Below are positions 11,917 to 63,583 of a stretch of 64,000 nucleotides of DNA, piece by piece. Origin of the DNA: Escherichia phage vB_EcoM_Kelasse; the sequence record MW749001.1; one strand, written 5' to 3'. Position 1 is the first letter of the stretch, and the number at the start of each line of letters is the position of its first letter. Under the pieces are notes generated by a model that was not told where the DNA came from, made no database searches, and saw only the letters and a list, made by a program, of their open reading frames with translations. Both the position numbers and the translations under genes were made by a program.

Positions 11917-12117
11917 ATGGTACAAAAATTAATGGCACTTGTTAATGCCATAAAAGGTAATAAAAAACGTATAGCTTTTACTATTTCTGCTATGGTAGGA
12001 ATTTTACTCTGGAACTTTATTCTATCACCTGTTGCAATTGCACATGGTATTAATATTCCAGTAGTTACTCTTGATACATTCGTAGATTTAGCATTTGCTT
12101 TAGTTGGGTTAATTTAA
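11917..12117 (+). CDS. small hydrophobic membrane protein (66 aa), plus strand
   Basis: Strong AAGGAGG Shine-Dalgarno 5 nt upstream; only plus-strand ORF not shadowed by a minus-strand gene. Confidence 0.5.
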   Translation: MVQKLMALVNAIKGNKKRIAFTISAMVGILLWNFILSPVAIAHGINIPVVTLDTFVDLAFALVGLI

Positions 12118-13142
12118 ATCTTAGCATATTTAGATAACCTCATTTTAGCCATCAACCCCTGGGCAATATTATTTTTCATATATTTCATAATTTGTTCAGG
12201 GGTTGCACCTTCCTTTCTAATCATATCATTGACATCTTTTGATTTCCAGGGAGATTTATCCCAAAACATAACCCTTTCTCCTGCATCAACTAATTTAGTC
12301 ATTCGTTTGATAGTGTCAGGGTGACGAGGTTCATTATCTAAAACCCACACTCGTCTATCTTTAAATGGAACAACTTCTAGGTCTAATTGACCACCCGTAA
12401 TAGCTATACCATTTTCAATAAAAAGTGAATCTATAGGTCCTTCTAGAACATATACATCACCATCTTTAACTCGTTCAACACCGTAAATTTTTGTTGCCTC
12501 AGGATAAGCTTTAATGGTGATATATTTTTGAGGAGCATCTTTCTTTAATGCACGTCCTTGAAAAGACTCAGCTTTTCCATTAGCATTATAAATTGGAATA
12601 ACAAGACGAGGCTCAGGTATTTCCTTTTTATATGTTCCCGGTGCTATGCTATTAACTAATTTAGGCCATTCAGTTGTAAACCAAAGATATTTCCATTTAT
12701 CCTTTGGAATACAACGAGCTTTTACATATTTTATAATTGCATGGTCTTCCGCCAGTTTATCTAATCGAACACATGACGGAAGAGATTTAATTATTTTCTT
12801 CTCAGGTTGTTTAGGAAGTTCTTTAGGTTTTTCTACTGGACGACTTTTACCTTTTTCTTTTCTTATTTCAAAGATATACTCACGATATAAATCAGGTTCA
12901 AACTCCTTTAAATATATTCCGATTGGTGCATGATAGTTACAGTTATAACAATGAATATTTCCTTCATTATTATCACCATAATACCATCCACGAGCTTTAT
13001 TCTGGTCGGTTTTTGAATCTCCACAAACAGGACATCTAAACCGTAATTTAAAAGTTGAACTATTATTTACTTGTGTGAATTTAGGTAAATGAGCTAATGC
13101 ACGGTATGCAAACTCATTATCAATCCAAGGTATTGATGACAT
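12114..13142 (-). CDS. 61: DNA primase gp61
   Basis: 342 aa; N-terminal zinc ribbon CPVCGDS...CYNCNYH; TOPRIM-like core. Confidence 0.9.
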   Translation of the reverse strand: MSSIPWIDNEFAYRALAHLPKFTQVNNSSTFKLRFRCPVCGDSKTDQNKARGWYYGDNNEGNIHCYNCNYHAPIGIYLKEFEPDLYREYIFEIRKEKGKSRPVEKPKELPKQPEKKIIKSLPSCVRLDKLAEDHAIIKYVKARCIPKDKWKYLWFTTEWPKLVNSIAPGTYKKEIPEPRLVIPIYNANGKAESFQGRALKKDAPQKYITIKAYPEATKIYGVERVKDGDVYVLEGPIDSLFIENGIAITGGQLDLEVVPFKDRRVWVLDNEPRHPDTIKRMTKLVDAGERVMFWDKSPWKSKDVNDMIRKEGATPEQIMKYMKNNIAQGLMAKMRLSKYAKI

Positions 13143-13144
13143 TT

Positions 13145-13309
13145 TTACTCTTCTTTTTCTTTAGATTCCTCTTTTTTCTTTTTAGGAATCTGTTCAGGGC
13201 CTTTATTTACTACAGCGCCTGACGTTGTTCCAGTAGAGATATTTTCAGGATTACCACCTGAATCTCCAGCGACCATATCTTCTTTGATAAATTCTTTATA
13301 TGTTTTCAT
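13145..13309 (-). CDS. small protein with capsid-targeting-like N-terminus (54 aa, 61.1 position)
   Basis: Hand-translated MKTYKEFIKEDMVAGDSGG...; GAGG Shine-Dalgarno; Lys/Glu-rich tail. Confidence 0.5.
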   Translation of the reverse strand: MKTYKEFIKEDMVAGDSGGNPENISTGTTSGAVVNKGPEQIPKKKKEESKEKEE

Positions 13310-13310
13310 A

Positions 13311-13937
13311 TTAACCTCTATTCATAAAAGCATTAAAAATTTGGTCATCAATAGAAACATTTACTTTAGACTGTTTTTCAGATGGTAATTCGTATCCACA
13401 TATTACAATTTTATGATCAATATTAAAATACACAGAAGCAATATGATTAATGATGTTTTCAGTAAAGTCTAAATCAACATCAATATCTTTTTGACCACAG
13501 CCCAAAGGATAAATAATGCGAGTAATTCGATTATCTTTAACAAAGATTCCACCGACATACTCTGTACTGCGTTTAAAGTCTACACGCCGACGAAATGAAA
13601 AATATTCAGGCTCTTTATGAGCTCGGCTCATAGGACACAACGAATAACTAGAATAAGAGATGTCAAATCCTACGCCTTCGATATGAGCCAAAGTGTCATG
13701 ATTAAACCAATTATAATCGTACGCCAAATCCATTAGATTATAATATGTAAAAGGCACCGGATTAACATCATTAGTCACAAGCATGTAATTAGCAACTGCT
13801 ATAATTTCATTGTTTTTAACGAATACAAACCGTGATTGATGCGAATGACCTGGACCCGCGTTTTCACGATTAATGATATAACACTGGGCACCTTTATATT
13901 TGTATGTATCTTTGCACTTGTGCATTTGATAGAGCAT
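13311..13937 (-). CDS. hypothetical protein (208 aa, 61.2 position)
   Basis: ORF track; position between 61 and sp. Confidence 0.55.
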   Translation of the reverse strand: MLYQMHKCKDTYKYKGAQCYIINRENAGPGHSHQSRFVFVKNNEIIAVANYMLVTNDVNPVPFTYYNLMDLAYDYNWFNHDTLAHIEGVGFDISYSSYSLCPMSRAHKEPEYFSFRRRVDFKRSTEYVGGIFVKDNRITRIIYPLGCGQKDIDVDLDFTENIINHIASVYFNIDHKIVICGYELPSEKQSKVNVSIDDQIFNAFMNRG

Positions 13938-16587: not shown

Positions 16588-17743
16588 TTAACTGCTCGAG
16601 GTCAGTTTCTAAATCAGCTGCTGATTTACTTTTACTTTCTGGAGATTTAAATTTTTCAACCTTTGAGTTAATCAATTCATCAACTTCAGCTTCAACAATT
16701 TCATTACTATCAATAGCACCTAACTGATAAGCACGTTTAATAGCATCTCGGAATGGTTGATGCTTAAATAAAGGACCCCAGAATGTAGTGCAGTTGGTAT
16801 CTTTTGCACGCCAAGATTTTTCTTCGCGAATCATCTCGCCAGTTTCTTCGTCAAGAAATTCACGAGCATACCAACCATTCTTAGGTTTTACAACAAATCC
16901 TAATTCTAGAGCCATATCTAACAATCCAGAATAAGGATCGATACCACCGTCAAATTTAACATCAATAAAGAATTTACTTTTTTCTTTAACGGTACGAGAT
17001 TTTTCTACATTTAGAACAAATTGATACCCCTGAAGATCAGAACCATCTTTAATCTGGCGTTTACCGATAATGAATACAGTATCAGCCGAATACATTACGC
17101 CTGTACCACCTGTCATCACGGTTTTACTAAACATTTCAATTGTTTCAATTGTATGGTTAACCGCAACACATGGAATATTTTTAATGCTAAAATAAGGAGT
17201 AACAATACGGAATAATGACTTCAGTGATTTAGCACGAGTCATATCTGCCACAGATTTTTCATTCAAGGCATCTTCCGTTTCTTTCTTAGAAGCCATATTA
17301 CCGATTGAGTCGATGAATACAATAACCTTTTCACCACGCTCAATAGCTTCAAGCTGGTTCACCATATCAATTTTCAGCTGTTCAACTGACTGAATTGGCG
17401 TATGAATTACTCGTTCCGGGTCAACTCCCATGGATCGTAAATAAGCTGGAGTAATACCAAATTCGCTATCATAGAATAGACAAACCGCGTCAGGATATTT
17501 GTTCAAATATGCCGCAACCATAGTCAAAGACATATTTGATTTAAAGTGTTTAGAAGGCCCTGCGAAAATAGTTAAACCAGACTGCATGCCGCCATCAATC
17601 GCACCAGAAATAGCAATATTAAGCATTGGGATTTTTGTACGGATTACATCCTTTTCATTAAAGAATTTAGATGTAGTCAGTTCAGCAGTCATTTTAGAAG
17701 TGGAAGCTTTAATCAAACGGGATTTTAAATCTGCAATAGACAT
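16562..17743 (-). CDS. uvsX: UvsX recombinase (RecA-like)
   Basis: 393 aa; RecA fold with Walker A-like GPSKHFKS. Confidence 0.9.
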   Translation of the reverse strand: MSIADLKSRLIKASTSKMTAELTTSKFFNEKDVIRTKIPMLNIAISGAIDGGMQSGLTIFAGPSKHFKSNMSLTMVAAYLNKYPDAVCLFYDSEFGITPAYLRSMGVDPERVIHTPIQSVEQLKIDMVNQLEAIERGEKVIVFIDSIGNMASKKETEDALNEKSVADMTRAKSLKSLFRIVTPYFSIKNIPCVAVNHTIETIEMFSKTVMTGGTGVMYSADTVFIIGKRQIKDGSDLQGYQFVLNVEKSRTVKEKSKFFIDVKFDGGIDPYSGLLDMALELGFVVKPKNGWYAREFLDEETGEMIREEKSWRAKDTNCTTFWGPLFKHQPFRDAIKRAYQLGAIDSNEIVEAEVDELINSKVEKFKSPESKSKSAADLETDLEQLSDMEEFNE

Positions 17744-57427: not shown

Positions 57428-57901
57428 TTATTTGAATGATTTGACGTACTGAATAGAACCTTTACTATTCACGAAAGCGATTTTACCATTTTTATTATAC
57501 ATGGTAGCAGTACGCTGATAGCCATAAGTTTGTTTACCAGATTGATAACCAACTAATGCGAAATTATCTTCACCCATTTTATTCTGTTTAGCGCGAATAC
57601 GTTCATGACCGTGTGCCATAAGAACCTTAGCATCACCAGTTGAAATTGATCTACGAGTTTTTTCATCTTCAACTGTATTAACAAAGTCGTCAAATGAATC
57701 AAATTTAGCATGGGATTTATTATACAGTTTTCCATCTACTGCATAATTATATCCCTGTACATCCATCTCAACTTCTGTACCATCATCCAATACAGCAGTG
57801 ATTTTTTGACCTTTTTTAAATTTCAAAAGATCAGTAAAAGATTCAGCAATAATTTGAGAATTAATAGCTGCTTCAGTGATAAATTCTTGATATGTTTTCA
57901 T
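57428..57901 (-). CDS. internal-protein-like protein with capsid targeting sequence (157 aa)
   Basis: N-terminus MKTYQEFITEA matches the T4 internal-protein targeting motif. Confidence 0.6.
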   Translation of the reverse strand: MKTYQEFITEAAINSQIIAESFTDLLKFKKGQKITAVLDDGTEVEMDVQGYNYAVDGKLYNKSHAKFDSFDDFVNTVEDEKTRRSISTGDAKVLMAHGHERIRAKQNKMGEDNFALVGYQSGKQTYGYQRTATMYNKNGKIAFVNSKGSIQYVKSFK

Positions 57902-58385: not shown

Positions 58386-59188
<803 letters not shown>

Positions 59189-63019: not shown

Positions 63020-63583
63020 TTATTTATCTAGTTTAGTTATTATAGCTTCTGCGGCAGCTTTTAGCTTAGATGCGGTGTTAATACGATTTTTAATTTCAGT
63101 ATACGCATCGCCAAGAACATCAAGGCTATCAGAATAAACACTTACACTATTGCGTTCGCTATTTGAAATAGAACCTTTAGTTTTACGTTCAAAATCGGTG
63201 TACACGTCTTGAAGATCACGGGCTGCCTTCTTTGCATCATCCAATGCATCAAGAGCTTTATTCAAAGCATTAACATATTTTTTAGTGTCGAACATATTCT
63301 TAGAAATTTTAACAGGTGCACGTTCAGGAGTAGCTAAGGCAGATTTAGGAACCTGAGCGCCAGATGCCAATTTCTTAGAAATTTTGAAAAATGCTTTATT
63401 GAAACTATTTTCTTGACTCATCGTAAAAGAACTATTATCAATGTTATACATTTCAATAGCTTTAGCTTTCCACTTAAGAAAATCGCCACGGTCTTTTGGG
63501 TCCAAGTGGAAGAATACTTTAGTAAGATCTGCTTCAGATGGTAATTTTGCTGCTTCGGTTAAAAATTCGGCGTAGGTTTTCAT
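63020..63583 (-). CDS. internal-protein-like protein with capsid targeting sequence (187 aa)
   Basis: N-terminus MKTYAEFLTEA; hairpin downstream. Confidence 0.6.
   Translation of the reverse strand: MKTYAEFLTEAAKLPSEADLTKVFFHLDPKDRGDFLKWKAKAIEMYNIDNSSFTMSQENSFNKAFFKISKKLASGAQVPKSALATPERAPVKISKNMFDTKKYVNALNKALDALDDAKKAARDLQDVYTDFERKTKGSISNSERNSVSVYSDSLDVLGDAYTEIKNRINTASKLKAAAEAIITKLDK

Follow-up and report, generated by a model that had tools for sequence, protein, structure and literature searches.

The internal proteins of phage T4 reportedly carry capsid-targeting sequence (CTS) propeptides of the form MKTYQEFIAE, as described by Mullaney and Black in 1996. Mutagenesis of the IPIII CTS in Black's work assigned targeting mainly to residues 4 and 7 and processing to residues 8 and 10, and an Asp at CTS position 10 abolishes processing (PMC9026906). 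The capsid protein gp23 is matured by the same prohead protease, gp21, which takes off its N-terminal 65 residues; the product, gp23*, starts with a 25-residue N-fist that touches four subunits and helps to build the Soc site. In the unexpanded head this N-terminal region has no ordered structure and is located within the shell, probably in contact with the scaffolding core; it becomes the N-fist once the head has expanded (PMC9958956; PMC9546572). Another set of gp21 substrates, the small prohead-core proteins gp67, gp68 and gp22, is likewise cleaved behind Glu, and the resulting short peptides leave the head or are retained in it (PMC9958956). A mass-spectrometry study of T4 heads confirmed 13 sites of gp21 cleavage, spread over 9 head proteins (PMC5694885).

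We examined a small ORF that may combine elements of these systems. It lies in a 64,000-nt stretch of Escherichia phage vB_EcoM_Kelasse (MW749001.1), hereafter the window, where a sequence-only reading had pointed out an unannotated 54-aa ORF with an internal-protein-like start between the primase gene and gene 61.2. The window belongs to a Tequatrovirus, and the 2.2-kb stretch around the ORF is 98.9% identical to Shigella phage KRT47. The features of the locus, all on the minus strand, are as follows.

13145..13309 (-), gene 61.1 CDS: 54 codons plus TAA, recognized from the ORF list, the T4 and KRT47 annotation, phrog_1823 and dN/dS.
13280..13309 (-), codons 1-10: CTS-like decapeptide MKTYKEFIKE, ending in a putative gp21 site, I-K-E↓D (here and below the arrow marks the known or putative cut).
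13196..13279 (-), codons 11-38: N-fist-like module DMVAGDSGGNPENISTGTTSGAVVNKGP, the counterpart, by homology, of the ~28 residues that open mature gp23*.
13148..13195 (-), codons 39-54: basic patch and tail EQIPKKKKEESKEKEE, a conserved P-x-KK(K/R) followed by a variable charged tail.
13315..13318 (-), Shine-Dalgarno GAGG: 5 nt before the 61.1 ATG and within the final codons of 61.2, read from the sequence.
12114..13142 (-), gene 61 (DNA primase): 342 aa, the constant downstream neighbour of the 61.1 family.
13311..13937 (-), gene 61.2: the upstream neighbour of 61.1, with a match to Pfam PF23813 (AdfA).

The ORF is present at 13145..13309, and its translation in the window ORF list, MKTYKEFIKEDMVAGDSGGNPENISTGTTSGAVVNKGPEQIPKKKKEESKEKEE (ATG start, 54 aa), is exactly the one that had been quoted; its strand, which the sequence-only reading left unstated, is minus. 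The proposed place between the primase gene and 61.2 is borne out by the minus-strand gene order of the window: 41 - dmd - 61.4 - sp - 61.2 - 61.1 - 61 - (terminator-like hairpin) - 56. The claimed GAGG Shine-Dalgarno was also found, and so were the Gly/Ser-rich stretch and, after it, the Lys/Glu-rich tail. The coding-strand sequence around the start reads ...AAT AGA GGT TAA T ATG, the TAA stop of 61.2 ending 1 nt ahead of the 61.1 ATG, and the ATG of gene 61 begins 2 nt after the TAA of 61.1. Further downstream, a 66-aa ORF at 11917-12117 (+), between 56 and 61, shares 4 nt with the end of gene 61; its product is hydrophobic and is labelled a predicted membrane protein in KRT47. The T4 record has dam downstream of gene 61 (16846-17625), and dam is absent here.

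What did not hold was the description of the ORF as unannotated and easily missed. It is a genuine small gene of wide conservation, the T4-type 61.1, which has long been known and annotated. The T4 counterpart (T4p034, NP_049649.1, 54 aa, 'gp61.1 hypothetical protein') is 96% identical to the window protein; KRT47, the closest record, labels the same gene 'similar to phage T4 gp61.1', and the name 61.1 is also used in the records of RB14, RB43 and Ac42. A CDS is annotated at the locus in nearly all of 60 records taken as a spread sample from the 1396 phage records with a tblastn match. The gene also has its own PHROG: phrog_1823 matches the window protein with E=7e-34 over 54/54 positions, and phrog_2086, a 156-position profile of a longer form described below, matches through its C-terminal 46 positions (E=2.6e-16). 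We found no paper in the searchable literature that discusses the function of gp61.1; its name was met only as a table entry.

The sequence-only reading had looked to conservation of the frame in related phages, and the frame is kept there, as the 1396 tblastn records, the substitution pattern and the synteny all indicate. Among 21 short-form genes from several genera, aligned in frame, the median dN/dS was 0.13 (Nei-Gojobori, 119 pairs with dS>0.15), indicating purifying selection, and synonymous sites in the same set were often saturated. The reading frame and length class are maintained across genera, together with the start site and the Shine-Dalgarno. In 64/64 IMG/VR contigs that encode a relative, the gene immediately preceding primase is the 61.1 homologue; the primases at these loci fall to 40% identity, and the contigs range up to KVP40 size. 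The same position, on the same strand as gene 61, was seen in the window, T4, KRT47, Ac42, RB43, Aeromonas phage 60AhydR15PP and Krischvirus Makalu, and the remaining genes between 41 and 61 are wholly different in Ac42, RB43, 60AhydR15PP and the Krischvirus. When the family profile was searched against 1.84 billion representative proteins, only 50 clusters (50% identity) were returned, all of them small proteins of 50-251 aa. A chance or spurious ORF was ruled out by the dN/dS and the synteny. Two protein entries, P0099 and P0118, equal T4 gp61.1 with every T/A/S/P changed to I/V/L/F (e.g. MKIFKEFIKEDMVVGDLGGNFENIFIGIILGVVVNKGFEQIF...). These changes match complete C-to-T conversion of the coding strand, and the entries are probably database artefacts from assemblies of bisulfite-type or similarly converted T4 control-DNA reads.

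The N-terminus of gp61.1 resembles the CTS of IPI, IPII and IPIII: it is a 10-residue M-K-T-Y-x-E-F-I-x-E with the same determinants and the (L/I)xE motif of gp21, here I8-K9-E10 followed by D11. It deviates from the IPIII CTS at positions 5 and 9 only and, judged by sequence, has all four CTS determinants (Y4, F7, I8 and E10). The claim that it shares the start of the internal proteins is confirmed within the window, where MKTYxEFxxE is common to three internal-protein-like ORFs. The six-frame translation of the window contains 4 matches to the pattern MK[TS][YF]x[ED][FVL][ILMV]x[ED], compared with 0 in 400 shuffles, and the other three ORFs that carry it, each encoded on the minus strand, start at 57901, 58667 and 63583. 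The 61.1 decapeptide is identical to these three IP-type starts at 7-8 of 10 positions; against MKTYQEFITE, the start of the ORF at 57901, 8/10 residues and 27/30 nt agree, with all synonymous positions the same. We consider the CTS resemblance of gp61.1 real as a likeness of sequence. AlphaFold2 predicts a short helix at residues 4-11 of the 54-aa form, at low confidence.

The three other ORFs deserve brief description. Those at 57428-57901 (-) (157 aa, CTS-type start, phrog_3155 internal virion protein) and 58386-58667 (-) (93 aa, CTS-type start, phrog_3499 internal head protein) occupy the ipII/ipIII position of T4, and their lengths differ from those of T4 ipII (100 aa) and ipIII (193 aa). 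The ORF at 63020-63583 (-) encodes 187 aa beginning MKTYAEFLTE↓AAKL, has the same L-T-E site as gp23 and matches phrog_2280 ('unknown function'); its product is a candidate for a further internal or ejected head protein.

The CTS-like start is also found beyond the close relatives of T4. Position 4 is Y or F in MKT/MKS-type short forms from several genera, and many short forms of distant phages begin with a peptide like M-x-x-F-K-x-F-(V/I/L)-x-E. Therefore, such a start is old in the 61.1 family rather than newly acquired from an ip gene. Of 174 distinct family sequences, 162 have a hydrophobic-x-Glu motif ([LIVMF]xE) directly ahead of the module (44 of 50 short forms and 118 of 124 long ones), for example LNE↓DM, VTE↓M, LFE↓DM, MNE↓EM and LTE↓AE. 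On sequence criteria gp61.1 behaves like a CTS-bearing prohead protein, its packaging being putative. However, there are differences from the internal proteins. Their cargo is a folded anti-restriction or effector protein, whereas that of gp61.1 would be only 44 residues long, not basic overall and homologous to gp23; 61.1 lies in the 41-61 early replication cluster rather than at the ip loci, and it is near-universal in T4-like phages, unlike the highly variable IP genes.

The similarity to gp23 begins within the decapeptide and extends through the module. Residues 2-38 of gp61.1 align without a gap to residues 57-93 of T4 gp23 (gene 23, L003 946-2511), with 16/37 identical residues (43%; BLASTP E=1e-8), KTYKEFIKE↓DMVAGDSGGNPENISTGTTSGAVVNKGP being paired with QAFGSFLTE↓AEIGGDHGYNATNIAAGQTSGAVTQIGP. 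Over this gapless 37-residue alignment E10 is in register with gp23 E65 (L63-T64-E65), the known gp21 cut residue, residues 11-35 correspond to the N-fist, and both segments appear disordered on their own. The N-terminal part of gp23 (1-118) matches phrog_1823 (E=4e-10) and phrog_2086 (E=4e-8), hhalign of a long-form alignment against gp23 residues 61-102 gave a probability of 96.2% (E=2.4e-9), and a short-form profile run against all PDB sequences matched only gp23/gp23* chains (best E=1.3e-5). The family profile did not recover gp23 from the 1.84 billion representatives, where it falls below threshold at that database size, and the gp23 link thus rests on the pairwise, PHROG, hhalign and PDB-scale searches. 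The invariant residues of the module are A14, G15, D16, G19, I24, G27, T28, T29 and G31. One family member, P0078, has YLTEAEVAGD, nearly a literal copy of gp23 FLTEAEIGGD. In a test for co-evolution or gene conversion between the two proteins, identity between gp61.1 and gp23 is just 1-2 residues higher within a genome in T4, RB43 and Ac42, three genomes being too few for this to be more than a lead. At codon 11 (13279-13277, -) the Asp of gp61.1 is aligned to gp23 Ala66; gp23 A66D is a published head-length mutation (PMC9546572), and the match may be coincidental.

By these alignments gp61.1 counts as a segmental paralogue, best read as a stand-alone copy of the gp23 maturation region. The similarity is confined to gp23 residues of about 57-101, that to gp24 is not significant (E=5.7), and a Pfam search with the 54-aa form returned no family at E<=1 and no Gp23 or HK97-fold body model. 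Unlike gp23, gp61.1 has no HK97-fold body, N-arm or Gol region, and a Lys-rich tail replaces the N-arm. Since it is only 54 aa long and lacks the HK97 body, gp61.1 is not a capsid protein. The label 'major capsid (domain-containing) protein', given to it automatically in several pipelines, overstates the relationship and is misleading on a protein of this size.

The end of the gp23 propeptide itself resembles a CTS. In our reading of the alignment, residues 56-65 (AQAFGSFLTE), numbered like a CTS, have aromatic residues at 4 and 7, with Leu and Glu occupying 8 and 10, and the same pattern is present in the gp23 of RB43 (ESFGGFLAE) and Ac42 (EAFSGFLSE). The CTS of the internal proteins may be a copy of the capsid propeptide end. 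No paper was found in the searched literature that states this likeness or links the CTS, the cleavage site and the N-fist. Nor did the searched papers take up the structure of the family in long and short forms, whereas automatic database names do hint at the link.

The short forms, of 51-64 aa, come from several genera with T4-type and related genomes. Their P42 and K44 are invariant and K45 is nearly so. The predicted tryptic peptide of gp61.1 is EDMVAGDSGGNPENISIGTTSGAVVNK, and its semi-tryptic form would begin at D11. Long forms of ~121-177 aa, with a few of 245-251 aa, are found in Pseudotevenvirus, Acinetobacter, Serratia and KVP40-size phages; they consist of a conserved ~105-residue N-domain, whose invariant residues include D, Y, L, W, G, P, E, Y, PFH, R and K, followed by the same module and a KKRK or KKRKR-type tail. 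For one long form, AlphaFold2 predicted a helical N-domain (pLDDT 78-90) and a disordered module (pLDDT<50), and the model of the 54-aa form was of low confidence (pLDDT 60.8, pTM 0.19). The 54-residue gp61.1 is predicted to be largely disordered, and the predicted disorder in the long form and low confidence in the short form are the grounds on which its module may be likened to the N-terminus of gp23 before expansion. Foldseek with the long-form N-domain against the PDB gave nothing below E=2.8, and hence neither a related solved fold nor a hint of function, and Pfam assigned no family to the long forms or the 245-251-aa variants. The members P0119, P0132, P0137 and L043 2210-2947 (149-251 aa) have a second CTS-like peptide after the basic patch (NFKQFVEGLE, DFKQFVESLE, GFKAFMEG) and an extra domain of ~95 residues that lacks Pfam or PHROG annotation; by their sequence arrangement these proteins look like multi-part precursors.

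The expression record of T4 bears on what gp61.1 might do. In time-course omics the 61.1 transcript is of the early class (PMC9697503, Table S2), and the protein was not detected in the accompanying infected-cell time-course proteome (Class_P = NA; PMC9697503). The ipII and ipIII transcripts are likewise early and their proteins late (PMC9697503), so that early transcription of 61.1 leaves a role in the head possible. Gene 61.1 sits in an early operon. Scanning of the window revealed no late promoter TATAAATA near 61.1 or within the dmd-61 operon, and sigma-70-type promoter matches in the operon were not above chance, the best site being upstream of dmd. Knock-down of T4 61.1 by CRISPRi-ART with dCas13d had no fitness effect (score -0.84, p=0.93, 'Not Fit'), and prior essentiality is given as unknown in the same table (PMC11879866). 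The text and searched supplements of the T4 head mass-spectrometry study of gp21-processed proteins make no mention of 61.1 (PMC5694885). For the processed, packaged and injected peptide of roughly 44 residues that the sequence-only reading had put forward conditionally, the proteome, the head mass spectrometry and the promoter scan thus gave no direct support. With regard to gp67, gp68 and gp22, gp61.1 would be a comparable small gp21 substrate. However, the genes for these proteins are in the late head cluster 20-67-68-21-22-23, whereas 61.1 is early, unlinked and dispensable; gp67 and gp68, unlike 61.1, are listed as essential in the CRISPRi-ART table, and none of them has sequence similarity to gp61.1.

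The reading that we favour, though tentatively, is that gp61.1 is targeted to the prohead core by its decapeptide and that a gp21 cut after Glu10 leaves a 44-residue peptide. The CTS-like decapeptide would bring gp61.1 into the assembling core, the prohead protease would cut at I-K-E↓D, and the cut would release a peptide made up of the N-fist-like segment and the basic patch. In the long homologues the same cut would part the ~105-residue helical N-domain from the same C-terminal peptide. The released peptide could remain with the DNA, be lost from the head or occupy the docking places of gp23 N-fists. The likeness to the CTS, the residues at positions 4, 7, 8 and 10, the E10-E65 register and the retention of hydrophobic-x-Glu argue for entry into the prohead. 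However, gp61.1 went undetected in the proteome, has no late promoter and could be knocked down without effect, all of which argues against it. So does the composition of the mature part: after E10 the net charge is about -2 in this phage, and the peptide, unlike the classical internal proteins, is not basic overall. A function in the head would also leave the constant linkage to primase unexplained. To our knowledge, no extra N-fist-like density has been reported in the published 3.3-3.4 A maps of the T4 head. A more specific version, which we regard as rather unlikely, holds that gp61.1 enters the prohead, that the gp21 cut leaves a 44-residue N-fist peptide, and that the CTS, gp23 56-65 and the gp61.1 start are one core-binding signal. 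The peptide could then fill N-fist/Soc-site positions that gp23 cannot, e.g. at gp24 or portal vertices, or alternatively tune shell-scaffold contacts, and the end of the gp23 propeptide would be the prototype of the CTS.

The neighbourhood of 61.1 points to a different possibility. Gene 61.2 (13311-13937, -) matches Pfam PF23813 (AdfA, anti-DarT factor A) over its full length with E=3.9e-136, and since this AdfA-type gene is grouped with dmd and sp, the 41-61 interval of Tequatrovirus has the look of a cluster for counter-defence; 61.2 is merely 'hypothetical' in the T4 and KRT47 records. An early transcript, made in Tequatrovirus from an operon shared with 61.2, dmd and sp and dispensable on the laboratory host, as is typical of counter-defence genes, would suit a gp61.1 that acts outside the prohead as an early-made, soluble mimic of the nascent gp23 N-terminus and occupies or titrates its binders. 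The partner might be a host immune sensor of capsid protein, for which gp61.1 would be a decoy, or a phage or host factor handling gp23, for instance a chaperone, the scaffold or the protease zymogen, and the CTS-like start would merely be inherited from gp23. The predicted disorder, shared with many mimics, is consistent with this role, and capsid proteins are known defence triggers, with Lit/Gol acting on gp23 itself (PMC3014915). However, counter-defence genes are usually patchy, and 61.1 has stayed beside primase in phages ranging from T4 to those of Acinetobacter and Aeromonas and those of KVP40 size. The aromatic positions 4 and 7 of the short forms and the conserved hydrophobic-x-Glu would have no explanation if gp61.1 were neither cleaved nor targeted. 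PADLOC gave no match for gp61.1, though its library covers defence and not anti-defence proteins. Nor is gp61.1 a Gol mimic, because its similarity to gp23 stops at about residue 93-101, which we take to be where the Gol peptide of gp23 begins. On balance we consider that gp61.1 is unlikely to be such a mimic, while giving the idea appreciable weight.

The constant neighbour itself suggests that gp61.1 might be tied to primase, either as a replisome accessory whose basic tail contacts DNA or gp61/gp41, or as a leader cistron whose translation would set gene 61 expression through translational coupling. The homologue stands immediately upstream of gene 61 at all 64 IMG/VR loci and likewise in every annotated record inspected; in the window, 2 nt separate the 61.1 stop from the gene 61 ATG, and the KK(K/R) patch is conserved. 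However, in several genera 30-220 nt or more lie between 61.1 and gene 61, and therefore tight coupling of the two is not general; coupling alone would not preserve 18 invariant residues at a dN/dS of 0.13, and the sole detectable homology is to a capsid segment, not to a replication protein. We judge a primase-linked role improbable. That 61.1 has no present function, as a chance frame or a decaying fragment of a gene 23 duplication, would agree with a very short ORF that was undetected in one proteome and gave no knock-down phenotype. Such a remnant is scarcely credible against synonymous sites that are saturated while the protein is kept at that dN/dS, the spread through 1396 tblastn records and 50 clusters, and the conserved synteny, start site and Shine-Dalgarno. 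About a fifth of our expectation is reserved for an explanation outside those considered here.

T4 head assembly is among the best-studied assembly pathways, and the sorting of proteins into the T4 scaffolding core is still termed 'mysterious' (PMC9958956). Since gp61.1 joins an IP-type peptide to a gp23 cleavage site and a copy of the N-fist, it suggests that the CTS is the same signal as the end of the gp23 propeptide. It would provide a minimal natural substrate for probing targeting, gp21 specificity and N-fist docking, and work on T4 packaging vectors gains a second natural CTS variant. If gp61.1 is not packaged, it would still be a mimic, produced early, of the late protein with the highest abundance, and as such relevant to the conflict between phage and host.
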